From a virus: 64,000 bases of DNA. The notes under the pieces are model-generated. The model saw nothing but the letters and a program-made list of their open reading frames with translations. It was not told where the DNA came from and did no database searches. Made by a program: the position numbers and the translations under genes. The DNA lies in the IMG/VR virus record IMGVR_UViG_3300021364_000015, positions 4,531-68,530 of that record; one strand, written 5' to 3'. How positions within the stretch are numbered: position 1 is the first letter of the stretch; the number at the start of each line of letters is the position of its first letter. Below, in pieces: positions 20,623 to 35,720 of the stretch.

Positions 20623-20631
20623 TTTTATATC

Positions 20632-23600
20632 CTACCCTGATGTTCCACTAAATCCAAATACGGATGCAGCGTCGGTCTCGGCAATTTTAAAAGTATCTAA
20701 CTTGCCCGTAATTTTAGCAGATGGGATGTCAGCACGCTTAACTTGTGGACCTAACTTCATTACCGGTCCGTTTGGACCGGCCTCCCACACAATAAAACGG
20801 AAAGTGCTACCGCCCGCAGCAGAGGGGTCCAGCACAATTATGTTCCTACTGTTTAGGACGGACAAATCAATTTGACTGGCCTGAATATCGGATTGAAGTG
20901 CTTCAAGGTTCTTGGTACCCATCGGCCCACCTAAGTCCCCAAGGTTAACAACCGATTCGGTCCACGGCACCTGATGAGGTATATAAACTTCATCACCACC
21001 ACCCCCGAGACTACCATTCACAAACGTCTGCCAAGGCCCGCCCGAATTGTCCCACTTACTCACAGAAGTGTTGTGCGGATTACCCCACACATCCGTAGAT
21101 GCCCATTGAGCATCCAACTTGCTAACAATATCGTCAGAAAACATAATTACGCCCGAACTCGTGCTTAACTGGGTCGCATCATCCTTGGTGCGAATATACA
21201 TACCATCCCCGGCCTGATGTGCTGGATCAGTGTCTCCCGAGGCCCCTCTAAGTCTATGTATGAAAGACGTGTTGCTTTGTGCTTTTTCAGCCCTATCTAA
21301 AGACCCCGTATGAGAGCCGTCCGCAAACAACCGACGAATAAACGTACTACGCCCAGACTCATCCGAAACAGATAGACTTTGGCTAGAATAAAATGCTGGA
21401 ACTTTAGGAGCGCCGTTACTGTGAGTATCAGTTACACCTTTCTTCCCTGAGCGTCGCTTACCTAGTTCAATTGCTGCCCGTTGTGCAGCCTCGGGTGTTA
21501 GAACAACGTGGGCTTTGCCTCCAGCCAAAGAGTAAGAAATATCTTCTGGTTTAATTCCGTACTCCGCTAAATGAGTAAGCACTGATTGCATCGTAGCAGG
21601 GCTACTGTAATCTGTACCATAACCACCATGGTAAGATGGATCGACGTTACCTGCTTTCAAAGAGGTGCCTTTTGCCAACAAATCTCTAGCCAACTGATCT
21701 CGGATTTGAGTTTCAGTGGGCGGAGAAGCATCCACACCAACCTTAGCAAACACGCCTTCTAATGTTTCTTGCGCCCTTGTTGGGTCTTTCATGGCTTCCC
21801 TAGTATCGCCACTAACAAACACACGGACCCTTCTATTCAAACCGTGTTCGGCACCACCATTATTTGCAACTTCGGGATAAACCATAACTTTCACATCCCC
21901 GAAATCTACAACCCTAATGGAAGTGCCCCCAGATGGGTCGGACGGGAGAAACTTTGAACTGCTGTCAATTGGGCCGTCACCAGACGACAACGTAGTATGA
22001 CCTTCACTCGCAAAGTCGCTTACGTTTTTGGATGTCCCGTCAAGGGAAGAATCGACCTTCAACGTAGGCATAGTATCGCCAGCAAAGTGGAATACCTTTT
22101 GATTACCGCCTTCAATATAATAGTGCGGATCGGTTCCTGCATCAATCTGCTCAAGAAGTTGAGTATGTGCTTCAGGAGACAAATTGAACGATAACTCTGC
22201 GTTCTTCACAAACTTGGCTTCACCTGAACCAACACCGCCCTCATTCACAAAATGGCCGGGAGTAAACGATACCTTCTGGCCTTCTAACGCAGGTCCGTCT
22301 ATAGAGAGTTCGTTGACAATCGGCAAAGGCGCATCTATGCTATCGTCTTTTGCGTCAATGTCCGAAGGACTGTTCATAGCCTTAACAACTCCCTCCGTCG
22401 ATGACTTTTGAATAGCAGTAACATCGGTGGATGAAAGCGTCAACTGAGGGGCCAGTAGACCAACGCCTTCAGCATAGGTAGCAGGATCACTCGGATCACC
22501 ATTAGGATCAACAATCTTACCGAACTTGCCAGATGACGCAGGTGGGGTAAACATCTTTATAGACGCTGCCGCATCCGTCAACTCTTCATCGGTCAAAACA
22601 TCATCAGCAAAATCTTTCCCAAGCGCATCCTTCCATCCGGCGTGGCGCTGAGCAACGAAATCAGACATCTCTAGCAAACGGCCAGCCTCTTCGTCAGTAA
22701 GATTACCGACTTCGACCTGACCACGAATTCGTTTCTGAGAAGCATCTACATCATAAGCCTGCAACGCTTTTTGCGCTTCTACGATAACAGCCTTACGATC
22801 TTCAGCAGGGAGACTACTGATGTATTGTCCAAATTTTGATCCGAAGAACTCTTCTGCACCGTCAGCCTTTTCCGTGTCATATGGGACGAACGCTTTACCA
22901 GCATCGAAAGCAAAAACTGATCGCTTACCGTTAGCGTCCACCATACTGATTCTGTTCCACTCACCATTATCAGGCTCACCAATTAAGTACTGCTGGGCAA
23001 GCATAGCGCCCAACTGCTGATGATTGAGTGCAGTCCCACTGTGACTCTTCTTCATGTCTAGAACATTGCCGACAGGCTGAATAATCATCGGACGATTAGT
23101 TGTGTCTACACCATCCTTGGTAATAGTATCTGATCCGTTGGGAAGCATCTCTGCGCCACTCTGGAAATACGTATCGCCCGCAAATGTTACATCGGGGACA
23201 GGTAGACCCAAATCCTGTGCAACAATCGCTGCTGACGATTCTGACAAGTGTTCTTTATCGTTACGGGCAGGCTTCTTTAGAACATAAAAGTTACCTGTTA
23301 CTTCATCACGGAACATCCGGGTTGGATAACCAATCGTAGCATTAATGCCTGCGTCGCCTACAGATGTTTCAACATACCGGTCAACAGAGCCACTACTAAT
23401 CGCATCAAAAATTTCATCATTCAGATCAAAGTCAGTTACCATGAACTCTGGATCATTTAGCGCATCAACAACCCCAACATCTGCTAACAACTCTGCCGCA
23501 GCCTCACGCTTTGCAGGTTCGTTGACATCAACCTTAGCCGCAACCTGCTTAAGAGGCAAACCTGTCTGCTTTGACTTCTTTAGCATCTCTTCATTATCGA

Positions 23601-26600
23601 AAAGCGACGGAGTGTGCTTCGTGGGAGGAACAACATCTTTAGGAATTCCCCCGGAGCCTTTAGTCGGACCAGAGTCAGGACTCGTCATATTCTTAAACAT
23701 GGCATTATAGTACGTGTTACCCGTTGTATCGCCGTTGACGCCGCCGTTACTGACCCATAAATCTAAATCGGCGGCGATCTGCAAGTCACGGGCTTTACCA
23801 GTTGCAGTTGTTGTGTCTTTATCAATGAATCCCGGCACCATGTCCGCAGAAACAAAGTCTACAGCGTCTGTTTCGTCATTACCAGCAATGTTAACTTTAT
23901 TGAGACCGCCGCTAACCTGTGCGATGAAGAAGTAGTTCTTGCTGGTGTCACCACCGTAAGACCCCGGTAGGGCACCAACGACCTGAACATCATCTGGTGA
24001 CAATCCTGTCTCTTCAGCCAACTCTCGCATAGCAGCGCCGTAAGCAGTTTCACCGTTGTCGATTCCACCCTTACTGAAAGTCCAGCCGTAGCCACCATAG
24101 TTACCCTTTGTGTGGCGCATCAAAACCTTACCGGTGTCAGTGTCCACAACTAGCACGCCAACACGAGTCGTTGGATCGTCAATGTCAAAATCGGGGTCAT
24201 CAAAAACCTCTGCTGGATCAGCCTTAGCAATTTGTTCTGGCGACCACGGATTAGAATCATACACTTTTTCACGATAATCCTTGCGACTCGCTGGAGGCTT
24301 AGGACCTGAAAGGCCATCTGCGCTATTATTGATCACATCGTCTGGAACATCCGTGGTGTCATTCAGATCAGGGTTGTTTACAACGTCTTCAATCTTGCTG
24401 TTCGGATGGAACCCATCGGGATCGGGGTCGCCCATTTCTAGATCGGCATTATCTACCAAACCATCTTGCTTAGCCTTTACTTCTCGGTTTGTCACCTCAG
24501 CCTTAAGTCTATCCAACGTTGTTTGGTTAACAGGAGAAAGCGGAGGAGTGCTCGTATCGGCTGCTTCCTTATTGAAAGCATCAGTGTAGGCGTTCAGTTC
24601 TTCGTCGGTAAGCGATTTGATAAATTCTGCTTCAGAAGGCGTAAATCCATCGGCGGATTCAGTTTCCGTGTAGAACTTGTTCCGCTCTTTACTAAAGCCC
24701 GTAAAAGTCAAATCCTTAGTAGACGGCGGCTCTTTAGACTCGCCACGCTTTTTAGCACGGGCACCCTGAATCATGTTGATCGCAGTAACACGATCTTGAA
24801 GAACCTTACTAGGAGGACTACCAGCGGCCTCAAGCGCAGCAATCTCAGCAATATGAGCCTGCTTATAGTTCTCTAAGTCGTCATCAGATAAACCCATCAA
24901 GAATTCATTAGTAGGCGTGGAGCCACGTGCTACTGCGAAACCTTCTGGCGAATAATCTACGCCGGGAGAAGATAACTCGTCAGCAGGGGTCTCAATGTCT
25001 ACCGCACCAGCGGCACCGCCAGCATCACCCGGAGGATCAACGGGAGGCTTGATCGAATTTACGATAGACTCACGACGGTTCGGCGCAAGCCGACCCACGA
25101 AATCTTCGTAATCCCCATCAAACGACCCGTCATCTTGGGCACGCTTCAACTCGTTAAGTTCCAGCCAATCGTTATACCGACGACGCTCAACACGGACATC
25201 TTTGCTATTCTTGTTAGCCTTTAGATACTTCTTGATATCCTTTTCAGAGAAATCGTTGATACCCTTACCCAAGCGGTTTGCCCAAAACGCTGACAACTCG
25301 TTAAACTCTACTTGGATAGCGTTATCTACCTTGCTCTTATCTTCGTCAGACAAATCCCGAAGTTCAGGAACGTCTACCTTCTTACGGCGACCGCCAATCG
25401 AAAGTTGACTAAAGTTGTCTAGTTTCTCAGGTTTACGTGGAGAATCAAACTTCTTCGGAGCCTTCGGGGCAGTTGCAGCAGGAGCAGCGGAAGCAGCAGG
25501 ACGGCGCTCACGCCGATCACGGCGAGAAGTGTCAGGATCGACAAAGTTCGCCAGTCGATCCATAATGCCAGCAATAGCATCAAGAATACGCCGACCAATG
25601 CTACGGTCCTTTTCATTCTTAGGAGGATTATCAGTAAGACGGCCAGCCTCCAAACCAGCAGCCTTTTCAACAGCCTTATAAGCCTTTTGAATCTCAGGGA
25701 TATCGGGGTCCTTGAAATCCTGATCATTCAATACGTTACTCAAATTGTCCAAAGCATCCGCCAAAGGCTCGCCGCCAAGCAAATCCTTATCCGCATCAGT
25801 CAACTGAGCAGCATTACGTCGCTCTGCAATGCTCGGACCAATACGACCCGGACGCTTGTCTTCAGTCTTATCCAAAACATTAGCGAGTTTATCCATGACA
25901 TCGGCAAGACCGTTCAAAGCGTTATCATACTTTTCCTTGATTGCTGCACCAAGACGCTCACGGCGAGAACCCCGCTCAAGCCTACGCTGACGGCGCTTCT
26001 CCATAGCGTCTTCAATACGGATACCAAGATCAACAAGACTATTTACAACAGTGCGTGGAAGAGAGTAGCCACAGTTACGCCCGAACTGATCGGTGATGCG
26101 CCCGCCGTAACGAGTGCCGGGAGGGCACCGATATCGGTTCAAACCGGGGTCGAACAGAGCACGAGCACGACCTCCGCCACGGCCACCCCGTTTAACTTGA
26201 ATGTTTTCTCGGCTTTCCGCAAAAATTGCAGCCCGAACTTCAATCAACTCGTGATAGTTAGCGGTTCGGTGTGTGAGAGAGGTAATCGTCTTGGTGGATA
26301 AGAAAAAAGGGTTAACCGCTTTTCCCTCCGAAACAATTTCAAAAACGGGAGCGTCCTTCGCACGGCGAGGAGCAGACCGAGACAAGAACGTCTCATAAAC
26401 CCACTGGGGAACCGTCAAAGTTTTACCACCAGCAGTCTGAACACGAATTAACTCGTTCTTGTTAGCATTCACTTCAAACTTGTTATTCTTTAGTTCCCCA
26501 AATTCAACAGTCAGCCTACCGTCTGTACCATCGGCATAATTGCGAATAGCCGCACTAGGGTCAGGCAGGTCTGCCGCCCGTCGTAAAGAGGTTGGGAAAA

Positions 26601-27936
26601 CACGACGCAAACTTTCAACCTCGGTCGGAGACAACTCTCCACCAACTCTACTCACACGGACAGCACCAGACTCAGGGATGTCAACATAGACATCACGGAG
26701 ACCGGTAGAGAAAGCAGGAACAATATCTTTACCAATCTGTCCGCTTTCATAACGATCAATCAGTGTACCATCAGCCAAGTCGTCAAACTCATCAAGTTTA
26801 CCAAGAGCCTGTAATGAAACCACAGGTTCAAGAATAACACCATCTCTACGAACAGCACGAACTGAAAAGTCTTGCTCATCCGTGCGAGCAAGAACAGTGT
26901 TAATTGAAATCTGACGGCGAGTGGGGCTACCCTTCTTGGGGGCAACAGGAATCTGAGCCGCACGGATAATATCATATGGATTACGGTTGCGGCGCAAGTC
27001 GCCAATCTCCCGAACCAGTGAAGCATCACGAGCCAAAGCAGCCAAAGCCCTCTGCGCTCCAGACGAAGGAGACCCTACGCCTTTACCGGGAATACCCAAA
27101 ATCTGAGCACCACAAGTACTGAACTGCGCATTAGTGAAAGTACCGCCCTTTTGGAATCCGGGCGGACACCTAAACTTATTGCGAGCGCCACGACCCCCAG
27201 CACGCCCACGACGGGCTAACCCGCCAACAAGTCGTCTAGCACTCGGAAGTCCCCGACCGCCACCGGGAGTCAAAGTTTCGTAAATCTGCGAACGGATAGG
27301 GCTACGGATATCTGAAATATCGCCCGGAAGGATAATAGTGCCTACGGCTTGAGCGGCCTGACCAGCACGGCTAGAACTGCCAAAAATGCCAACACGCTTT
27401 TCGCTAACTTCACCGTTAACTCCAACCTTTGCCGCATACGAAGAAAACATTGCCGCCTTCATATCAACAGCAGACTGACGGCCAGCAATAGGCTGAACTA
27501 GCACGCCACCAAAGTCCCTAGATTCACGAACAGCAATCCGCAAAGGCGAAACTTCAATTATTTCGTTCTGAGAAAGCAACTCACCCGACTTCGCTCTGCG
27601 GGCAGCACTTCTAACACGGCGAACACTCCGACTACGGCGTTTACCGCCACGCCCACGCCCACGCTTACCTTTACCCTCGTTGGGCCACTTGCCTGTAAGT
27701 TCGTGGTGAAGCCACGCACAGATGCGCTGAGGTTTGCCACCAAACTGCGGTTTATCCATAAGGATAACAACACAGCGGCGAAATCCACCCGGCTTCTTCA
27801 TGATAGGACGCCAGTACTTTAAAAGTTCCTCAAGATTGCCACGACGAGGACCACGACCACGAGTAAGGCTAGTTAAAGCATCTGCGTTAGGGCCGACTTC
27901 TGGTCTTTTAATTTCAGTCAGCATCGAAATCCCCAC
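20632..27936 (-). CDS. Giant (2434 aa) multidomain head-associated protein with a Nudix hydrolase and a HipA/PI3K-like kinase-like domain (likely start 27924)
   Basis: Nudix box GGIDNGETAYGAAMRELAEETG; kinase-like 'FYVLKK...SE..A..VAQDLGLPVP...LIGEPDN..WN...FDAGKAF'; two RCPPG..GG..T...CG motifs; lies inside the head operon. Confidence 0.7.
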   Translation of the reverse strand: MGISMLTEIKRPEVGPNADALTSLTRGRGPRRGNLEELLKYWRPIMKKPGGFRRCVVILMDKPQFGGKPQRICAWLHHELTGKWPNEGKGKRGRGRGGKRRSRSVRRVRSAARRAKSGELLSQNEIIEVSPLRIAVRESRDFGGVLVQPIAGRQSAVDMKAAMFSSYAAKVGVNGEVSEKRVGIFGSSSRAGQAAQAVGTIILPGDISDIRSPIRSQIYETLTPGGGRGLPSARRLVGGLARRGRAGGRGARNKFRCPPGFQKGGTFTNAQFSTCGAQILGIPGKGVGSPSSGAQRALAALARDASLVREIGDLRRNRNPYDIIRAAQIPVAPKKGSPTRRQISINTVLARTDEQDFSVRAVRRDGVILEPVVSLQALGKLDEFDDLADGTLIDRYESGQIGKDIVPAFSTGLRDVYVDIPESGAVRVSRVGGELSPTEVESLRRVFPTSLRRAADLPDPSAAIRNYADGTDGRLTVEFGELKNNKFEVNANKNELIRVQTAGGKTLTVPQWVYETFLSRSAPRRAKDAPVFEIVSEGKAVNPFFLSTKTITSLTHRTANYHELIEVRAAIFAESRENIQVKRGGRGGGRARALFDPGLNRYRCPPGTRYGGRITDQFGRNCGYSLPRTVVNSLVDLGIRIEDAMEKRRQRRLERGSRRERLGAAIKEKYDNALNGLADVMDKLANVLDKTEDKRPGRIGPSIAERRNAAQLTDADKDLLGGEPLADALDNLSNVLNDQDFKDPDIPEIQKAYKAVEKAAGLEAGRLTDNPPKNEKDRSIGRRILDAIAGIMDRLANFVDPDTSRRDRRERRPAASAAPAATAPKAPKKFDSPRKPEKLDNFSQLSIGGRRKKVDVPELRDLSDEDKSKVDNAIQVEFNELSAFWANRLGKGINDFSEKDIKKYLKANKNSKDVRVERRRYNDWLELNELKRAQDDGSFDGDYEDFVGRLAPNRRESIVNSIKPPVDPPGDAGGAAGAVDIETPADELSSPGVDYSPEGFAVARGSTPTNEFLMGLSDDDLENYKQAHIAEIAALEAAGSPPSKVLQDRVTAINMIQGARAKKRGESKEPPSTKDLTFTGFSKERNKFYTETESADGFTPSEAEFIKSLTDEELNAYTDAFNKEAADTSTPPLSPVNQTTLDRLKAEVTNREVKAKQDGLVDNADLEMGDPDPDGFHPNSKIEDVVNNPDLNDTTDVPDDVINNSADGLSGPKPPASRKDYREKVYDSNPWSPEQIAKADPAEVFDDPDFDIDDPTTRVGVLVVDTDTGKVLMRHTKGNYGGYGWTFSKGGIDNGETAYGAAMRELAEETGLSPDDVQVVGALPGSYGGDTSKNYFFIAQVSGGLNKVNIAGNDETDAVDFVSADMVPGFIDKDTTTATGKARDLQIAADLDLWVSNGGVNGDTTGNTYYNAMFKNMTSPDSGPTKGSGGIPKDVVPPTKHTPSLFDNEEMLKKSKQTGLPLKQVAAKVDVNEPAKREAAAELLADVGVVDALNDPEFMVTDFDLNDEIFDAISSGSVDRYVETSVGDAGINATIGYPTRMFRDEVTGNFYVLKKPARNDKEHLSESSAAIVAQDLGLPVPDVTFAGDTYFQSGAEMLPNGSDTITKDGVDTTNRPMIIQPVGNVLDMKKSHSGTALNHQQLGAMLAQQYLIGEPDNGEWNRISMVDANGKRSVFAFDAGKAFVPYDTEKADGAEEFFGSKFGQYISSLPAEDRKAVIVEAQKALQAYDVDASQKRIRGQVEVGNLTDEEAGRLLEMSDFVAQRHAGWKDALGKDFADDVLTDEELTDAAASIKMFTPPASSGKFGKIVDPNGDPSDPATYAEGVGLLAPQLTLSSTDVTAIQKSSTEGVVKAMNSPSDIDAKDDSIDAPLPIVNELSIDGPALEGQKVSFTPGHFVNEGGVGSGEAKFVKNAELSFNLSPEAHTQLLEQIDAGTDPHYYIEGGNQKVFHFAGDTMPTLKVDSSLDGTSKNVSDFASEGHTTLSSGDGPIDSSSKFLPSDPSGGTSIRVVDFGDVKVMVYPEVANNGGAEHGLNRRVRVFVSGDTREAMKDPTRAQETLEGVFAKVGVDASPPTETQIRDQLARDLLAKGTSLKAGNVDPSYHGGYGTDYSSPATMQSVLTHLAEYGIKPEDISYSLAGGKAHVVLTPEAAQRAAIELGKRRSGKKGVTDTHSNGAPKVPAFYSSQSLSVSDESGRSTFIRRLFADGSHTGSLDRAEKAQSNTSFIHRLRGASGDTDPAHQAGDGMYIRTKDDATQLSTSSGVIMFSDDIVSKLDAQWASTDVWGNPHNTSVSKWDNSGGPWQTFVNGSLGGGGDEVYIPHQVPWTESVVNLGDLGGPMGTKNLEALQSDIQASQIDLSVLNSRNIIVLDPSAAGGSTFRFIVWEAGPNGPVMKLGPQVKRADIPSAKITGKLDTFKIAETDAASVFGFSGTSG

Positions 27937-28110: not shown

Positions 28111-29976
28111 TCAGGAACCTTCGCCCTCCATGAGAGCACGGAACTCATCTAGCGCAGAAAGGAAATCGGCGTCATCTGACTTTTCGCCGTCAGCCTCAGG
28201 GGCCGCTGCTTCGGCAGCATCCCCAAAGCCTTCAGGAATCATCTCTTCAAGACCAAGTTCTTTAGCCCGCTTCATGATATGTGCCTTTGCGGCATCGACA
28301 TCCTTAGCACGCTGATGAGCCATAATAGCATTCTTCAGATCAGCCTCATCAGCAATCGGGAACGACCCGTCTTCCATCGCCTCGCCCGACTCAGCCATTG
28401 CTTCACGCTGCTCACGTGAATACATGCGCTTAATTTCAAGTTCGGCCTCAAGAGCCTTGATCTCTTCCTCTTCGCTCATTTCGTACTCAACGTCATCAAT
28501 CATGTCGTATTCGTCGTAGCCCAAAACCTTACCCTCTACTGAAACGTAGAAATCAAAACTCTTCTGGTCAGAATCAACTTCAACAACATAGACATCTTCA
28601 TCAGCGAAAATATCAACCATGATGCCCATGACTTCGCCCTTAGCATCAAGTTCCATTTCATCAAATGCCTTAACAGCGACTGCTTCAGCATCTGAAGAAG
28701 AAATGATGTTCAGTTCTTCGGCAGACTTGCCTTCTACTAGACTTTCGTCAACTCGCAGCCAGCCAAGTTCATCGCCCTCACCTGACAGGAATACTTCAAT
28801 ACAAGTACCATCGTCACACTTGACATCTACAACAAACATGTCATCAGTGGAAGAGTAACCTGATCCAATGATTTCCCCCGGATGGACGCTCTTAACTACC
28901 GACTCAATATCCGCAAGACCGGGAAGGCCGTCTTCAGGAGCGCAGCCGCCCTGACAGAAGTCGCACGGCTGTGCGACAGACTTGCGTTGGAAGCCACACA
29001 GGAATTCTTCAGACTTTTCACCATCTTCAGGCTTAGCAGCAGTCAACTTTTCCCATTCATCGTGGGAAGCGCAAGGCATGAACTTGTCACCAGCACCATG
29101 TGTACCTTCGCAACCAAGGGCAGCAGCACGCTCAAGGGCCTCTTCTTCAGTGTCGAACATGTCAGCCATGCCTTCGGCCTTTTCCTGAACCTCTTCGGCA
29201 TCTTCAGACTTCTCATCGTCTTCGTCTTCCATGTGACCGCCCTTACGCATGGAGTTGACTTCAAGAGGACTGCGGCGACGGTAGCGCTTACCATATCCCT
29301 TGCCAGAGCCTTCTTCGTAAACGTCAACAGCCTCGTAGGAGTCCTTGGCGTCTTCATCAAGATCAGCGTACTTCTCTTCTGTGATGAGATCGTCGTCGGC
29401 TTCCATCTCTTTAAACCGGGCGTCGGTCATGAACATTGAAGGGGTTTCATCTTCGTCGTCTTCAATACGAGACATCTGCATCATGATAGAAGCAGCCTTG
29501 GCTTCTATATCACCGGACTCTTCAGGGTCTTCAGCGTCTTCAGGAAGTTCACCGTCTTCAGCCTCAGCCTCAGCCTCTTCAGCGTCAGCCTCTTCAGCGT
29601 CAGCCTCTTCAGCGTCGTCAGCGTCAGCCTCTTCATCGTCGTCAGCGTCAGCCTCTTCATCGTCGTCAGCGTCAGCCTCTTCGGCATCCTCATCGTCGTC
29701 AGCATCCTTAGTCTCAGCCTCTAGCGCTTGAGCAACCTTTTCAACCATGTCTTCGGCCTCAGGTTCGTCAGCCTCTACAGCCTCAGCCTCTTCGGCGTCG
29801 TCGGCCTCTACAGCCTCCACCTCTTCGGCGTCGTCAGTTTCTACAGCCTCAGCCTCTTCGGCTTCATCTACTTCGTCTTCAGTGTCGTCTTCGGCGTCAG
29901 CGCCCTTTTCCTCAACAGAAAGAAGCGCCTCAATATCCTCAAACTTCTGAAGATCGTCATTCATGTTTTCACTCAT
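28111..29976 (-). CDS. Very acidic head-associated protein (scaffold-like; PepSY-like, LGCxGxH..PC and DUF6582-like modules)
   Basis: Asp/Glu-rich repeats; 'LGCEGTHGAGDKFMPC'; 'ISSSDAEAVA...YVVEV....DFYVSVEGKVL' PepSY-like; 'GSFPIADEADLKNAI'. Confidence 0.6.
   Translation of the reverse strand: MSENMNDDLQKFEDIEALLSVEEKGADAEDDTEDEVDEAEEAEAVETDDAEEVEAVEADDAEEAEAVEADEPEAEDMVEKVAQALEAETKDADDDEDAEEADADDDEEADADDDEEADADDAEEADAEEADAEEAEAEAEDGELPEDAEDPEESGDIEAKAASIMMQMSRIEDDEDETPSMFMTDARFKEMEADDDLITEEKYADLDEDAKDSYEAVDVYEEGSGKGYGKRYRRRSPLEVNSMRKGGHMEDEDDEKSEDAEEVQEKAEGMADMFDTEEEALERAAALGCEGTHGAGDKFMPCASHDEWEKLTAAKPEDGEKSEEFLCGFQRKSVAQPCDFCQGGCAPEDGLPGLADIESVVKSVHPGEIIGSGYSSTDDMFVVDVKCDDGTCIEVFLSGEGDELGWLRVDESLVEGKSAEELNIISSSDAEAVAVKAFDEMELDAKGEVMGIMVDIFADEDVYVVEVDSDQKSFDFYVSVEGKVLGYDEYDMIDDVEYEMSEEEEIKALEAELEIKRMYSREQREAMAESGEAMEDGSFPIADEADLKNAIMAHQRAKDVDAAKAHIMKRAKELGLEEMIPEGFGDAAEAAAPEADGEKSDDADFLSALDEFRALMEGEGS
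29555..29900 (-). repeat. In-frame tandem repeats encoding (E/D)EADADDD and EAEAVEADD units
   Basis: Repeated gtcagcgtcagcctcttcatcgtc (24 bp) and cagcgtcagcctctt (15 bp) units. Confidence 0.8.
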
Positions 29977-30003: not shown

Positions 30004-31602
30004 TTACTTGACGCCGCTGTCGGTGTCAACGGGCTGGGACACGGAAATTTCAGGGTCAAACTCTAAGCCAGCCAGAGCCGTAGCAACCTTCTCTAGTAAC
30101 TCCTCATGCTCAACCTTGGTTGAGAAATGAAGATCAACCCCATCTTCCGACTTGAACGTAAACACGGGAACACCCGAAACGGCAGCGCTGACATCAAAGG
30201 CTTCAGTTTCTTCACACTTAATGTGGACAACAAAGCCTGATGTGACCTTTTCGCCTTGTTCCATTGGGCGAGACATCGGCGCAGAAGTTAAGAACTCTTC
30301 AAGTTCATTAATAAGAGCAAGGGTGGCTTCACGCACCTGTCCAGCACCCCGAACCTTCAGCATCTCGTTGTATGCCATAAGAAGCAAGGCCATAGGGTCC
30401 TTCAAGTAATCGGGCTTCTGACGACGCATCATGTGGCCCTTTTCCTCAGTCTCGCAACCGCAAGACGCATCCTTGGCTTCCTCTACTTCAACACCTTCAA
30501 GGTAGTTATTATGTGAATTGATGTTAGCGTTGTCATCAAACTTTTCAAGCGCTTCCATGTACTCTTCATGAGTATCACAAGGCAGGTACCCACCACCATG
30601 AGAGTGGTAGCCAGAACAACCAAAAGTCTTTGACCATGCTAAAGCAATGTCTGGAGTAGCCCAAGTGCCCTGCTCTGGATTCGCATCACGGACACCTTCT
30701 GGCTCTTCAGCATCTTTCTCATCTGGGTCCTTCACCATCATCGAAGTAGGTGCAGCGTCCCCCATCGGAGTATATGTAGTCATGGGCTTGACACGAGTGG
30801 GCTTGCCGAGAGTAATCTGCTGCCCTTCACGGTTGAATGTTGCCATCCACACCATGTTTTCACCGGTCTGGAACACAACGCTATTATCATTCATCTCTAG
30901 AATCTGCACAGGCTTACGTAGTGCCTGCGACAACATACGCCCCATCATTGCAGACATTGCATCTGCTCTATTAGCAGGAGCGTCCTTATCATCATCCATA
31001 TCGTACATTCCGCCCTTATCAGAGGTGCCCTCGTTGTCGTCTTTAACAGAAATCGTACCAGTCAACTGGTTAGCACCATGAAGTACTGGAGAAATTTCGT
31101 ATAATTCTACTTCCTTCAGCATATTTGCCTGACGGCCTGCGTCAAAATCGGCCATAATGGTCTTGTAGCCAATTGACCATTCTTGATCCATGCCGTAAAA
31201 TGCAACGTTTGCAAACGCCTCACGTCCACGCTCGGTGTTAAGATTGAACTGGACCTTGGCAAAGAGTCCACCAATACCCGCCTGTTTCATCTTCTCTGGT
31301 AGGCGAGGGTCGGACTTAGGAACTTCGTAGATTTCAAGAACTTTACCAATCGGCTGGTTCCAGTCGTGGCCCCACACTACACGAGGCTTACGGCGCTTAA
31401 GTGAACCGTTGAAAGCCCCCGTGACGACTACATCGCCCACGGAATCTTTATTACCAATGCCTGAAACAAAGGCTTCAACAATGCCCTGCGCCTTGTCAAT
31501 ACCGATCTGACCAGAAATTGCTTTAAAATCAAAAGCGGGATCAGTGTCTTCAACGACATCTGCATACTCAACTAAAGTAGTCATAACTCTCCTTAAGAAC
31601 AT
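30004..31602 (-). CDS. HK97-family prohead protease with long C-terminal extension
   Basis: 'KDSVGDVV..GAF', 'WGHDWNQPIG', 'WSIGY', 'EVELYEISPVLHGAN'. Confidence 0.92.
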   Translation of the reverse strand: MFLRRVMTTLVEYADVVEDTDPAFDFKAISGQIGIDKAQGIVEAFVSGIGNKDSVGDVVVTGAFNGSLKRRKPRVVWGHDWNQPIGKVLEIYEVPKSDPRLPEKMKQAGIGGLFAKVQFNLNTERGREAFANVAFYGMDQEWSIGYKTIMADFDAGRQANMLKEVELYEISPVLHGANQLTGTISVKDDNEGTSDKGGMYDMDDDKDAPANRADAMSAMMGRMLSQALRKPVQILEMNDNSVVFQTGENMVWMATFNREGQQITLGKPTRVKPMTTYTPMGDAAPTSMMVKDPDEKDAEEPEGVRDANPEQGTWATPDIALAWSKTFGCSGYHSHGGGYLPCDTHEEYMEALEKFDDNANINSHNNYLEGVEVEEAKDASCGCETEEKGHMMRRQKPDYLKDPMALLLMAYNEMLKVRGAGQVREATLALINELEEFLTSAPMSRPMEQGEKVTSGFVVHIKCEETEAFDVSAAVSGVPVFTFKSEDGVDLHFSTKVEHEELLEKVATALAGLEFDPEISVSQPVDTDSGVK

Positions 31603-31682: not shown

Positions 31683-32476
31683 TTATCTTGTAAACTTCAA
31701 CACACAACGACAGTTAATTGTCAACCCCGGAGGGGCCAAGGGGTCTTTCGGGAAACGGATAGGTACCCCGTCAACAAAAAATGGGCTTCCAACAGGGACT
31801 TTATCTCCATTTAATTGCCTGTGACTAATACGCACACGCTCATCTTTTAGCGAAACCCACTGCTTGTTCACTCCGGCATCAGCATTTGAAGCGGAGTCGA
31901 AAAGTCCTTGATTGTATGGACCAAGAACTGCGGAATCTACAATCATATCCTTGCGGTTACTACGTAATTTATTGAAAACTGCTTTGACGAGTACCGTAGC
32001 AAGAATAACCTTAAAGGCTATATTTAAATCTACCCCATCTCTATCCCGCCCCAGCGAAGCAGCAGCAAGTGCCTCTGCAACTTGGTTTTGCGTCGTGGTA
32101 TTGAAATTATTGACGGTTGCGAGATGTTCTGAAACGGCAGCGTCTGCTTGCTCAGAAGTCACGGGCTGACCATAGCCTTCTTCGATATTATCAGAAATGG
32201 CCTGCTGATAGATATCTTTCATGCCCGCTGTAAGTGGTGCAGTGCTAACAGACAAAGCAGCAATAGGAACTATAGAAGCAAAATTAGCGTCCTCGCCTAA
32301 AGACAGGAGAGCAGACGTTGCTGGAGTATTAATCGCTTCTAAGACTTCTTGTTCTTGAGCATCAATGATTGCATCTAACTGCTGAGAAACTTGATCCTCT
32401 AACGACTCAACCCGGTATAGTGCTTTATCTTCCCAAGAGGTATATTTAGAAAGATCACCAAACTTTAGATTTGCTG
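31683..32476 (-). CDS. MuF / SPP1 gp7-like minor head protein (frame open to 32492; probably entered by -1 frameshift from the portal)
   Basis: 'KQWVS..DERVRISH..LNG..VP....F......FPKDP......INCRC' MuF signature; no ATG/GTG/TTG in the ~70 codons upstream of TTG 32255. Confidence 0.8.
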
Positions 32477-33928
32477 AAAAGGGGCACTCTTCCTACCCTC
32501 CGCTTCGTCATCCTGCAATTCACTTGCAACTGATGCGGCGGAGGCTTCGATATTCTCGGTACCTGTTACAGTACCGGCCTCAACAAAGCCACCTTCTTCT
32601 GGACTGAACTCTGTAACTACTGACTGCTGAGCATTCTGAGCCTGAACATCTAGAGGTACGCCGCCCTCAACGTTGGTTTCCTCATTCATGGCCTTTTCTG
32701 TATTTGCGATTGGGGTCTGATTAGGGTTGGAAAGGAGTGAGTCCGCAATGTCGGAAACAACCTTTTTCCGGCCAGATGCTTCCCTATACTCATTTGCGCT
32801 TATCAGGCCCGTCTGGAACTCTGTTAGATTATGTCGCTCACGCTCCTGCTTTGCGAGTACTAGGATTGGGACGTTAGAAACATCAAAGTCAATAAAGAAG
32901 GAATCGTCAATCTTGTCAAATGAACGGGCAATAAGGTCAAGGTGCGGAGACATTGTTTCCATCCAAAACACCTTACCCTCTTCCATAGCGTTAGAGAAAG
33001 TACGGTTAGACGAGTTACCAATAATTGACTCAGGGACACCAAAAGCAGCAAGAATTTCTTCCTTGGTGACAGTTCTCATCTGAATATATGCAGCATCACG
33101 TGGGCTAGCAGCCGTATCTACGAAGTCAGCACCGTCATCTGAAGAGATCACCCCGACAGAACCTGCACGTCCAATGTTGCCACGGAAACGAGAACGAAGT
33201 TCTTCTTTGTCCTCATCTGCAATCTCGCTCCGAAGGACTAAGAGACCACCCGGTCGGCCATCGTTAATCAAGAAGTTTCTGTTATAAATCTTCGCTAAGT
33301 TTTCAAGTTCAATGGCAACGCCAGCGGCTTCCATTGGCGTCATAGAAAGGTAAGGGTCTAACGGATGAGGGCGACGAATCCAAATAACATTCTCGGGCTT
33401 GATTGTACGCTTCTCTTGTGCGTTGATCTTTACCTCAAAGCCTTTGACAAACTTAGTGACATCTGGAATTGGAGACGTACTCTGCGGAGGCAACAAGTGC
33501 AGTGCAATTGGCTGACCGCCTCGGCCTCTAACAATTTCCACAAAAGCGCCACGGCTACTCATAAGTAACTGTGATGAAAGACGGTATCTGAAGGCAAAAG
33601 CGTTCTCACCGTCGTTGGCCGTGTTGTTGAAAAGTTTCAACATGCTGTGGTCACTGACAACCTCACCGAAAGGATTGTTGTCTTTGCGGAACATCATGGG
33701 TAGGCGGGCCTGATTAGAAGCAATCACGTCAATGCATCGAAATACCCAAGTGACCTTAGAAACGCCCTCTTTGTACGCTTTAACAATATCCCAGCCGTCG
33801 TGGTAACCCCGACTTTCACCCAGTGATGGGCTATATGAAACTGGAGCACCTACTGAAATAGAGGCTGCTTTCTGCTGACCAGCAATTGCATCTTGAATAG
33901 ATTTGTTTGAACTAGAGTTCCACGCCAT
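32465..33928 (-). CDS. Portal protein (HK97 family)
   Basis: 'WVFRCIDVIASNQARLP', 'NFLINDGRPGGLL', 'EILAAFGVPES', 'SANEYRE..G'. Confidence 0.95.
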   Translation of the reverse strand: MAWNSSSNKSIQDAIAGQQKAASISVGAPVSYSPSLGESRGYHDGWDIVKAYKEGVSKVTWVFRCIDVIASNQARLPMMFRKDNNPFGEVVSDHSMLKLFNNTANDGENAFAFRYRLSSQLLMSSRGAFVEIVRGRGGQPIALHLLPPQSTSPIPDVTKFVKGFEVKINAQEKRTIKPENVIWIRRPHPLDPYLSMTPMEAAGVAIELENLAKIYNRNFLINDGRPGGLLVLRSEIADEDKEELRSRFRGNIGRAGSVGVISSDDGADFVDTAASPRDAAYIQMRTVTKEEILAAFGVPESIIGNSSNRTFSNAMEEGKVFWMETMSPHLDLIARSFDKIDDSFFIDFDVSNVPILVLAKQERERHNLTEFQTGLISANEYREASGRKKVVSDIADSLLSNPNQTPIANTEKAMNEETNVEGGVPLDVQAQNAQQSVVTEFSPEEGGFVEAGTVTGTENIEASAASVASELQDDEAEGRKSAPFQQI

Positions 33929-34086
33929 TATTCAGCCCCTAATAGATAGCCGTAAATTCCACAAGCGAAGCCAGCACTTGCCAGACCCCACCCCAGACTG
34001 AGTATACTAATACCAAAGCCTATTAGTAGTATACCAGCGCCCATGAGAATATGGGCAACGGCAGAACGATTTAGAATATTCTTCAT
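33928..34086 (-). CDS. Small 2-TM membrane protein upstream of portal
   Basis: MKNILNRSAVAHILMGAGILLIGFG...YLLGAE*; TAATG overlap with the portal start. Confidence 0.65.
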   Translation of the reverse strand: MKNILNRSAVAHILMGAGILLIGFGISILSLGWGLASAGFACGIYGYLLGAE

Positions 34087-34106: not shown

Positions 34107-35444
34107 TTGTCTAGGAGACAAGCAAATATGTCCTCACAGAACCCGGACTGGGAAAAAATCAAAGAGTATTTAGAGCCTAAGCGGTCTGACTACTGGGTCG
34201 AAGAACCGTCCCTAACTCAAAAAGTTTTCCTACGGTCGGAAGGTCAAGAAGTCATGTTCGGCGGCGCTGCTGGCGGAGGTAAGTCTTCGGCGCTTATCAT
34301 GGCTGCTTTGCAGTATGTGGATATTCCAAACTACAGTGCTATTCTCTTCCGTCGAACATACGCCGACCTTGCCCTCCCCGGCGCTCTCATGGACCGCTTC
34401 CGAGAATGGATTATGCAGTTTGACGATGTTCATTGGAACGCAAACCAATACACTGCAACATTCCCCTCCGGTGCCAGAATCACATTCGGTTATCTGAATA
34501 ACGTAAATGACTATCTCCGTTACAAAGGTTCGGAATTTCAGTTCATCGGCATGGATGAGGTTACCGAGATTAGAGAGTCTGACTACAGATACATGTTCTC
34601 CCGGCTTCGTCGTCCTGCGTCTGGCCCTCTATCGAAAGTTCCCCTAAGGATGCGGTGCGCTACCAACCCTGCACCTAACTGGGTCCGTCAAAGATTCTTA
34701 GTTGAAGGTGCAGATAATGGGAGAATCTTCATTCCTTCAATGCTTACAGACAACCCCGGAATTGATCCCACATCATACCGTGCCATGCTTTCGGAACTTG
34801 ACCCAATCGAACGTAAACGCTTAGAGTTCGGTGACTGGTGGGCTACCACCCTTGGCTCCATGTTCGATAGAAACAACTTTGAAATTATCGAACCTAGTGA
34901 AGTACCTGAACTCAGTAAAGATACAACCGTAGTGAGGTTCTGGGACTTGGCCGGAACGGAACCCTCAAACTCTAATCCCGATCCTGACTGGACAGTTGGT
35001 TGTTTGGGTGCTTTCGATAACGGTATATTTTATATTCTAGACGTTCGCCGCATAAGAGCAAAGGGAGAAAAGGTCGAACGGTTTGTTAAAGAAACTGCTG
35101 AAGAAGATGGTGCCGAAATAATGATTCAGATGGAACAAGAACCCGGATCGGCAGGTAAAAACCTAATTGACCAATACGCAAGATATGTTCTTCCGGGTTA
35201 CAACTTTTCTGGGCAGAGAGCAACTGGCGATAAAGTGACTAGAGCAAAGCCTTTTGCCGCAGCCGTGGCTAACGGAAATGTTAAACTAATTAGAGCAGCA
35301 TGGAACACAGACTTCATTGACGAAGTATCGTCATTCCCAGAAGCGAGAGTTCACGACGACCAAGTTGATGCTGCTACCCATGCATTCAACCTTTGTGCAG
35401 GACTAGGTATGGGAATCAGACGTAAAATCGAAATCATCATTTGA
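34107..35444 (+). CDS. Terminase large subunit (likely start 34128)
   Basis: Walker A GGAAGGGKS, Walker B FIGMDE, 'ATNP', nuclease 'WDLA...DWTV', 'HDDQVDA'. Confidence 0.95.
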   Translation: MSRRQANMSSQNPDWEKIKEYLEPKRSDYWVEEPSLTQKVFLRSEGQEVMFGGAAGGGKSSALIMAALQYVDIPNYSAILFRRTYADLALPGALMDRFREWIMQFDDVHWNANQYTATFPSGARITFGYLNNVNDYLRYKGSEFQFIGMDEVTEIRESDYRYMFSRLRRPASGPLSKVPLRMRCATNPAPNWVRQRFLVEGADNGRIFIPSMLTDNPGIDPTSYRAMLSELDPIERKRLEFGDWWATTLGSMFDRNNFEIIEPSEVPELSKDTTVVRFWDLAGTEPSNSNPDPDWTVGCLGAFDNGIFYILDVRRIRAKGEKVERFVKETAEEDGAEIMIQMEQEPGSAGKNLIDQYARYVLPGYNFSGQRATGDKVTRAKPFAAAVANGNVKLIRAAWNTDFIDEVSSFPEARVHDDQVDAATHAFNLCAGLGMGIRRKIEIII

Positions 35445-35453
35445 GGAGAAAAT

Positions 35454-35720
35454 ATGAAAGTGTGGATCGACCAAGATTTGTGTACGGGAGATGGGCTGTG
35501 TGCGGAAATTTGCCCTGATATCTTTGAGATGCACGATGACGGCTTAGCATACGTCAAAGAAGTACCGTGGCCGAACATTAAAGGCCCCAACGGTGATGCA
35601 GAGGGACCTGTTTACCAGATGGCAGAAGGTCAGGCAGAAGTTCCTGAGAACTTACTTGCTGACACTATTGATGCCGCTGAAGAGTGCCCCGGCGAGTGCA
35701 TCTTTATTGAAGTCGATTAG
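35454..35720 (+). CDS. Ferredoxin (single cluster, actinobacterial type)
   Basis: CTGDGLCAEICP...ECPGECI; GAGGAG RBS. Confidence 0.92.
   Translation: MKVWIDQDLCTGDGLCAEICPDIFEMHDDGLAYVKEVPWPNIKGPNGDAEGPVYQMAEGQAEVPENLLADTIDAAEECPGECIFIEVD

Follow-up and report, generated by a model that had tools for sequence, protein, structure and literature searches.

The stretch of DNA considered here, which we refer to as the window, covers 64 kb from an uncultured marine phage, whose IMG/VR record (IMGVR_UViG_3300021364_000015) has a length of 68.5 kb and a CheckV completeness of 46%, and our subject is the junction within it between the portal gene and a gene for a MuF-like minor head protein, where a candidate site of programmed -1 ribosomal frameshifting is located. 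All of the junction features are read on the minus strand. The portal gene (32465-33928) encodes a 487-amino acid (aa) protein of the HK97 family, with a Pfam match to Phage_portal (PF04860; 187.8 bits against a cut-off of 39.1) that extends over residues 61-384 and profile positions 2-319 of 321. Its 3' end is overlapped by 28 nucleotides (nt; 9 codons) by an open reading frame (ORF) of 269 codons in the -1 frame (31683-32492, with TAA at 31685-31683) that encodes a full-length MuF-like minor head protein. The Phage_Mu_F core (PF04233; 38.1 bits against a cut-off of 29.6) corresponds to a small C-terminal beta domain (DPLAPPGLTINCRC; 31698-31958, residues 179-265 of the ORF). The two domains do not share a frame in the window, with portal translation stopping at the TAA at 32467-32465 and MuF lying in the -1 frame.

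The portal gene ends with GCC CCT TTT CAG CAA ATC TAA, and the sequence C_CCT_TTT within it (32477-32483) has the X_XXY_YYZ phase of a slippery heptamer and is the proposed -1 shift site. Three codons to its 5' side is a -1-frame stop (TAG at 32493-32495; TAA or TGA in relatives) that shuts the -1 frame to upstream translation. A Shine-Dalgarno-like (SD-like) sequence GGAGGGT is located at 32495-32501, the GGAGG core of which (32501-32497) ends 13 nt 5' of the heptamer, and a second purine block, GAAGAG (32487-32492), is formed by the 0-frame codons AAG AGY together with the preceding wobble G and is conserved at the nucleotide level. Decoding after a shift would proceed from TCA (32477-32475), giving a trans-frame product calculated at 484 + 264 = 748 aa, its two parts joined at ...SAPF|SANLK. 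In the -1 frame no ATG, GTG or TTG occurs before TTG 32255, 79 codons in, and the first ATG is at 32222. A preliminary description of this DNA had reported the in-frame heptamer, a -1 frame that opens after the TAG and runs without a stop into the MuF domain, about 70 codons lacking start codons, and a product of ~750 aa with the junction SAPF-SANLK; each of these stands, with the start-less segment extending to 79 codons, and the conserved SD-like tract is a feature beyond those it listed. A crude delimitation of window ORFs gave 43, whose 16,983 codons contain 54 in-frame X_XXY_YYZ heptamers (one in about every 314 codons), and a single-sequence estimate puts the chance of an in-phase heptamer inside the 9-codon overlap at ~0.03. 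There are three in-frame CCCTTTT sites in the window, and only the one in the portal gene is associated with a long -1 ORF (264 codons, versus 15 and 7 at the others).

A portal-based search of IMG/VR identified 80 loci with portal identities of 65-93%, and at 56 of these MuF is in the -1 frame, overlapping the end of the portal gene by 22-55 nt and accompanied by the common element GAGGGT-RR-GAAGAG-NNN-CCCTTT. These 56 loci represent 35 distinct 200-nt junctions (including that of the window), which we compared with positions counted from the heptamer. All 35 have GAGGGT (-17 to -12), with a preceding G in 30; GAAGAG (-9 to -4) is conserved in 34-35 of the 35 at each position, wobble included; and CCCTTT (0 to +5) is present in all 35 with its X_XXY_YYZ phase unchanged, the seventh base being T in 29 and A in 6. 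The columns immediately 5' and 3' of the conserved block contain only ~0.1-1 bit of information. All but one of the 0-frame wobble positions between -15 and +3 are fixed, compared with 41-89% synonymous differences elsewhere, and the signal blocks are invariant among relatives in which MuF identity is as low as 44% and portal identity as low as 65%. The shift site and the overlap are therefore conserved in diverged relatives with synonymous variation suppressed, and because the signal is conserved in this way a chance origin of the junction layout is negligible. When all of IMG/VR was scanned with the pattern GAGGGTRRGAAGAGNNNCCCTTT, 60 contigs were matched (one with a CCCTTTC heptamer). Every one of the 60 has the 3' end of a portal homologue in the 0 frame at the motif, and in every one the -1 frame opens exactly three codons 5' of the heptamer; 58 have a MuF homologue downstream in the -1 frame, with the remaining two loci ending 30-39 codons past the site. 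The -1-frame stop in the motif-bearing contigs is always TAG, TAA or TGA (0-frame GGT-RRG, never GGT-GGG), and would halt ribosomes already in the -1 frame.

The start-less part of the MuF frame (32222-32476, extending to an invariant Met) is predicted to encode a linker, two helices and half of a third. The -1 product can be aligned from the heptamer onward (PFS...TWE.K.LYRV.SLE...LD.IID.QE...), and no conserved ATG, GTG or TTG, or CTG or ATH preceding conserved residues, is found before alignment column ~96. Between the portal stop and the conserved Met, the proportion of nonsynonymous differences (pN) is 0.08-0.28 against a synonymous proportion (pS) of 0.41-0.89 in 11 sequence pairs, and judging from these substitutions the start-less N-terminus is under purifying selection; both frames are under such selection. 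A structural model of the MuF-frame product (AlphaFold, built on 33 sequences; predicted local distance difference test score 82.1, predicted template modelling score 0.80) has disordered residues 1-9, helices at residues 17-51, 54-65, 74-101, 110-143 and 155-199, and a small beta domain, with residues 17-101 forming helices 1-3 of a five-helix bundle. A search of BFVD with this model gave 116 matches at E<=0.001, named as head morphogenesis, minor capsid or MuF-like proteins, and stand-alone MuF proteins of 250-320 aa among them align over nearly their full length (~265-315 columns); a fold search of the PDB gave no match at E<=0.001. The suggestion in the preliminary description that the first ~70 codons of the -1 frame look protein-like is borne out by the purifying selection, by alignment from the heptamer on, and by the assignment of these residues to the first helices of the MuF fold.

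TTG 32255 corresponds to residue 77 of the MuF frame and ATG 32222 to Met88, and according to the model a start at either would remove helices 1-2 and cut helix 3. Because the N-terminal helices upstream of the first start belong to the fold, the complete MuF appears to be without an initiation codon of its own. An alternative is that MuF is made alone from one of these internal starts and that the 79 upstream codons are untranslated or incidentally open; Met88 is invariant in 33 aligned relatives and the Pfam MuF core lies downstream of it, both of which are as this explanation would have it. However, the codons upstream are under purifying selection and conserved as protein from the heptamer on, they encode helices 1-2 and half of helix 3 of a confidently modelled bundle matching full-length MuF proteins, and the position of the first canonical start shifts from 21 to 77 codons past the heptamer among 58 contigs. 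Nor is there an SD-like word before TTG 32255 (in a word test) or before ATG 32222 (by eye), and we consider internal initiation very unlikely. The overlapping -1 ORF, with its MuF domain and fold, purifying selection and lack of an early conserved start, encodes an extension that would depend on the shift.

A sequence resembling the signal, GGAGGG-N12-CCCTTTT, is also present in phase at 26305-26328 (minus strand) inside a 2,435-aa ORF (27936-20631), where it encodes SEGKAVNPFF, a peptide similar to EGRKSAPF of the portal. We rejected this as a second frameshift site, as its -1 ORF is only 15 codons long and the heptamer is lost in two of 19 relatives (L093 and L094) with the peptide kept. 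The codons for EGKxxNPFF vary among the 19 relatives (GAG/GAA, GGG/GAG/GGC, CCT/CCG, TTT/TTC), and from its sequence this is probably a peptide motif, possibly a processing site, and not a frameshift site. The similarity raises the question of whether the 25-nt block of the portal gene is kept mainly for the peptide EGxKSxPF, for example as a maturation-protease or targeting site, with the heptamer a by-product and the route of MuF expression left open. The presence of EGKxxNPFF in the 2,435-aa head protein, and its conservation there as protein, speaks for such a role, but with the codons varying and the heptamer lost in that copy, and all wobble bases but one fixed in 35/35 junctions in the portal copy, the two behave differently. 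The look-alike thus serves as a control: a similar peptide selected only at the protein level drifts normally at synonymous sites, and the lack of such drift in the portal gene argues for an added constraint there on the RNA. The motif is also missing from portals that lack a -1-frame MuF (those of L021-L026 and the L031 group), and a peptide function offers no translation route for the conserved start-less MuF N-terminus. We consider an explanation by the peptide in place of the frameshift very improbable.

The presence of a strong SD-like tract directly before the opening of the -1 frame could also indicate that GGAGG is an ordinary ribosome-binding site for non-canonical initiation within the overlap, and that MuF is a separate full-length protein, as it is in the sister lineage L021-L026, where a separate MuF begins at an ATG that precedes the TWE motif by ~10 codons. 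After the stop the -1 frame reads GAA GAG TGC CCC TTT TCA GCA AAT CTA AAG, which nonetheless includes no ATG, GTG, TTG, CTG, ATT, ATC or ATA, and the invariant, in-phase CCCTTT of 35/35 junctions would be left unexplained; it therefore seems extremely unlikely that MuF is initiated here. We attach similarly little probability to slippage of RNA polymerase on the C3T4 run, by which a base would be added to part of the transcripts to put MuF in frame. The shift site does consist of two short homopolymer runs, with T5 in some relatives (the L028 group), but these runs are just 3-4 bases long, with T3 only in six of the 35 junctions (CCCTTTA), and known sites of transcriptional slippage need longer ones; polymerase slippage also requires neither a strict codon phase of the heptamer nor an SD-like tract at a fixed 13 nt. 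Finally, that an assembly or sequencing indel obscures a simple in-frame fusion or a pseudogene, a thought encouraged by the in-frame genes of the relatives L019 and P0002 described below, is effectively refuted by a frame relation that is identical in 56/80 loci and in 60/60 pattern matches from many metagenomes, by purifying selection on both frames, and by contigs of three studies that bridge the site without an indel. These are Logan contigs from three runs, one in each study, that cross 32465-32501 with zero inserted or deleted letters: the X1 contig, which may come from the source sample, has one mismatch, X2 record 7 is identical across 32345-33000, and X3 record 10 has 15 substitutions (contigs of a further run, X7, leave 32475-32606 uncovered).

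We conclude from the sequence comparisons that in this clade the portal gene very probably has, close to its 3' end, a conserved programmed -1 ribosomal frameshift, as the preliminary description had proposed in predicting a fusion of portal to MuF, with support from conservation of the signal, the start-less coding region, natural in-frame fusions and the absence of an indel. We infer slippage itself, the stimulatory role of the SD-like tract, and the efficiency from the sequence, and envisage the following sequence of events. The majority of ribosomes would reach the TAA and produce the 487-aa portal, and some would pause with CCU in the P site and UUU in the A site. During the pause GGAGG(G), 13 nt upstream, would pair with the 16S rRNA tail of the elongating ribosome, and slippage by -1 on C_CCU_UUU would allow the P-site tRNA on CCU to re-pair with CCC and the A-site tRNA on UUU with UUU. 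Continued decoding in the -1 frame would yield the 748-aa portal-MuF fusion, and MuF would be carried into the procapsid as a covalent extension of some portal-ring subunits, at the C-terminus that faces the interior, a tether that would replace the non-covalent binding of portal to gp7 that loads a few copies of MuF in phage SPP1. Recoding would set a sub-stoichiometric number of MuF-bearing portal subunits, a number that stays a matter of inference because efficiency cannot be read from sequence.

The components of the signal correspond to those described in bacteria. Heptamers of the type H_HH.U_UU.Y, including C_CC.U_UU.U, are in the most efficient class in Escherichia coli, and C_CC.U_UU.A and C_CC.U_UU.U both give more than 0.1% shifting without stimulators (PMC4066793). 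SD-like elements 6-17 nt upstream stimulate -1 motifs (Sharma 2014, PMC4066793), and the SD-like sequence in the window, at 13 nt, falls within this interval. C_CCU_UUU is also the shift site of West Nile virus (PMC11797035).

Several observations weigh against this interpretation. Six of the 35 junctions have C_CCU_UUA, which is outside the top E. coli class (PMC4066793). No downstream stem-loop or pseudoknot is shared among the relatives; in the 60 nt to the 3' side of the site the mean z-score is -0.40, and just two of 35 junctions are below -2. The corresponding 60-nt stretch of the window has a z-score of -2.39 (minimum free energy -12.4), and a 10-bp hairpin is possible at 32420-32455 (minus strand), 21 nt 3' of the heptamer, which is specific to the window and lacking in its relatives. 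A search of Rfam gave only one sub-threshold match, to an unrelated human long non-coding RNA family (15.6 versus 60 bits). Downstream structures are not always present in prokaryotic -1 signals (PMC4066793). An SD-like word precedes the first start in only 13 of the 43 crude window ORFs, several of the 13 being strong sites of the AAGGAG type. The GAAGAG block is unaccounted for by an SD-based model, and the invariant -1-frame stop inside the SD-like tract is likewise without explanation in it. Part of the conservation of the portal block could moreover be at the peptide level, given its likeness to the peptide of the 2,435-aa protein.

The same side of the balance includes those relatives that lack the -1 layout altogether. 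At six of the 80 loci (L021-L026) the C-terminus of the portal is replaced, the motif is missing, and MuF is provided with an ATG of its own (MKNLDDKNIATWEEK...) in a +1 overlap; the ATG overlaps the portal stop in the +1 frame (ATGAAGAATCTTGATGA; for example L023:5380-5580). At 15 of the 80 (L031, L033-L044, L049 and L055) the portal gene is followed by that for the prohead protease with no MuF between them. L031, L033, L049 and L055 were read in three frames, and the other 11 were classed by the lack of a tblastn match to MuF together with ~76-77% portal identity; the assignment covers the portal-protease interval only, and MuF could sit elsewhere in those genomes. A portal-MuF fusion is therefore not obligatory in the clade, and because these 15 relatives have no MuF beside the portal, MuF may be dispensable, by analogy with gp7 of SPP1. 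A further two of the 80 loci end before the portal 3' end.

Permanent portal-MuF fusions also exist, as the preliminary description had stated, both in close relatives and in cultured phages. In L019, the portal of which is 80% identical to that of the window, the 0 frame runs into the MuF N-terminus and the -1 frame is closed, a natural in-frame fusion that retains a vestigial GGAGGGTAAGCAG...C_CCT_TTA (with a GGAGGGT relic; L019:4750-4900). P0002, a 749-aa protein found in a database search for longer homologues, has both Pfam domains in one frame; its residues 1-410 are 68% identical to residues 1-416 of the window portal, and its C-terminal part (residues 484-749) aligns with the -1 ORF over residues 2-269 of the latter (34% identity, E 2e-39). 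Where the motif would stand P0002 has a long linker rich in Pro, Glu and Gly. The closest portals of cultured phages, at ~39-44% identity, are Brevibacterium phage Cantare gp7, Gordonia phage Hanem gp23 (and relatives) and Streptomyces phage Gilgamesh gp46, and these ORFs of 793, 886 and 817 aa contain Phage_portal and Phage_Mu_F in a single ORF. The MuF match exceeds the gathering score in two of these and reaches 24.4 bits in the third, which its depositors annotate as a portal and MuF-like fusion. Portal-MuF fusions are also reported for Microbacterium phages of clusters EA3, EA5, EA8 and EB (PMC7302621). A DNA search of cultured phages gave no match, so that a close cultured relative is lacking, and a tblastn search with MuF gave 275 records that match the C-terminal domain only, none covering >=80%; no prophage relatives were found in 185,579 species genomes, which hence give no clue to the host. 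A quick tree (with SH-aLRT support, a midpoint root and long outgroup branches) has the -1 layout in every major branch of the marine clade. The loci without MuF group together in one supported clade, as do those in which MuF has its own ATG, and layouts other than the -1 one are confined to single clades or tips; no direction of evolution is drawn from this tree.

The portal signal is similar to those of E. coli dnaX (tau/gamma) and of IS911 and other IS3-type elements, in that an X_XXY_YYZ heptamer is combined with an upstream SD-like stimulator acting on the elongating ribosome. The SD-like spacing in dnaX is roughly 10-14 nt, close to the 13 nt of the window, and in IS911 the shift fuses two overlapping ORFs, as we propose for portal and MuF. 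Unlike these, however, the portal heptamer is C_CCU_UUU/A and not A_AAA_AAG, and it would belong to the same class by its action and not as a sequence member; no conserved 3' hairpin or pseudoknot was found; the interval from the SD-like tract to the heptamer contains GAAGAG and an invariant stop of the -1 frame; and in place of a polymerase subunit or a transposase the genes encode a portal and a minor head protein.

Among phage structural genes, frameshifting occurs in T7 10A/10B, and the tail assembly chaperone genes G/G-T were reportedly shown by Xu, Hendrix and Duda in 2004 to be expressed in this way. The major head protein of Lactobacillus phage A2 provides another example (Garcia 2004, cited in PMC10885494). 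As in these systems, the proposed -1 shift is near the end of a gene of the virion module, would generate a C-terminally extended minority form at a fixed ratio, and has a layout conserved across diverged phages. None of the three involves portal or MuF, and in contrast to them the extension here is a whole folded protein of 264 residues with no other means of expression. The order of the domains, Phage_portal followed by Phage_Mu_F, is the same as in the actinobacteriophage fusions (Cantare, Hanem, Gilgamesh and Microbacterium EA/EB), but in those MuF is on every portal subunit, whereas here only shifted ribosomes would make the fusion and the ratio would be set by translation. In SPP1, binding to the portal gp6 directs a few copies of the MuF protein, gp7, into the interior of the procapsid, and gp7, although dispensable for assembly, aids infection (PMC6316719). 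As in SPP1, MuF would reach the procapsid interior via the portal in few copies, although the link there is non-covalent and gp7 has its own start codon, and that proposed here is covalent and created by recoding.

A more elaborate form of the frameshift proposal, which we regard as rather doubtful, is that the 25-nt element is dual-coded, acting both as an RNA frameshift signal and, in the peptide EGxK|SxPF, as a processing or targeting site. MuF would be loaded on a translationally set number of portal subunits and then freed through a cut made a little upstream of the junction by the adjacent prohead protease, which is of HK97 type, with EGKxxNPFF of the 2,435-aa protein handled alike. If true, portal genes would gain their first described recoding event, and capsid cargo a general 'tether, load, release' route.

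The junction lies within a head module on the same strand. Downstream of the MuF-frame ORF is a gene for an S78 prohead protease (30004-31602), which also has a sub-threshold DUF3721-like stretch (24.6 bits against a Pfam cut-off of 27), and between the protease and other head genes are a very acidic 621-aa ORF (28111-29976) and the 2,435-aa ORF (20631-27936) containing the look-alike peptide. A 52-aa ORF (33928-34086, minus strand) ends at the portal start and has by eye two putative membrane spans; Gilgamesh and Hanem likewise have genes annotated as 'membrane protein' immediately upstream of their fused portals. The large terminase gene (34107-35444, plus strand) is divergent from the head module, and just past it is an 88-aa ORF (35454-35720, plus strand) with a C-x2-D-x2-C...C-P pattern, a candidate that we take to resemble a small ferredoxin.

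A -1 shift at a heptamer with an SD-like stimulator, the frameshifts of tail chaperones and some capsid proteins, and permanent portal-MuF fusions are all already known. For a portal-MuF frameshift we found no published report, in keeping with the preliminary description, which likewise knew of no such site; one might be listed in the supplementary tables of PRFect or in those of PMC4066793, where five prophage clusters are tabulated, which lay outside this search. Supplements aside, neither the PRFect paper nor Sharma 2014 contains the word 'portal', and it is likewise missing from the 300,000 characters searched of the Atkins 2016 review. Tail chaperone pairs are the textbook case of frameshifting in tailed phages, and a few capsid proteins provide others, but we found no report of it in a portal gene.

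The finding has practical consequences, in that in at least 60 IMG/VR contigs gene callers would overlook MuF or shorten it to ~190 aa, and a short signal with no apparent 3' structure makes a direct test in an E. coli reporter feasible. Toxins are among the cargoes borne by MuF proteins in many phages (PMC6316719; PMC7302621). If true, frameshifting would be a third way to place MuF/gp7 at the portal, beside a separate gene and a permanent fusion, and the presence of three MuF solutions in one clade would constitute a natural experiment in setting the copy number of an internal head protein.

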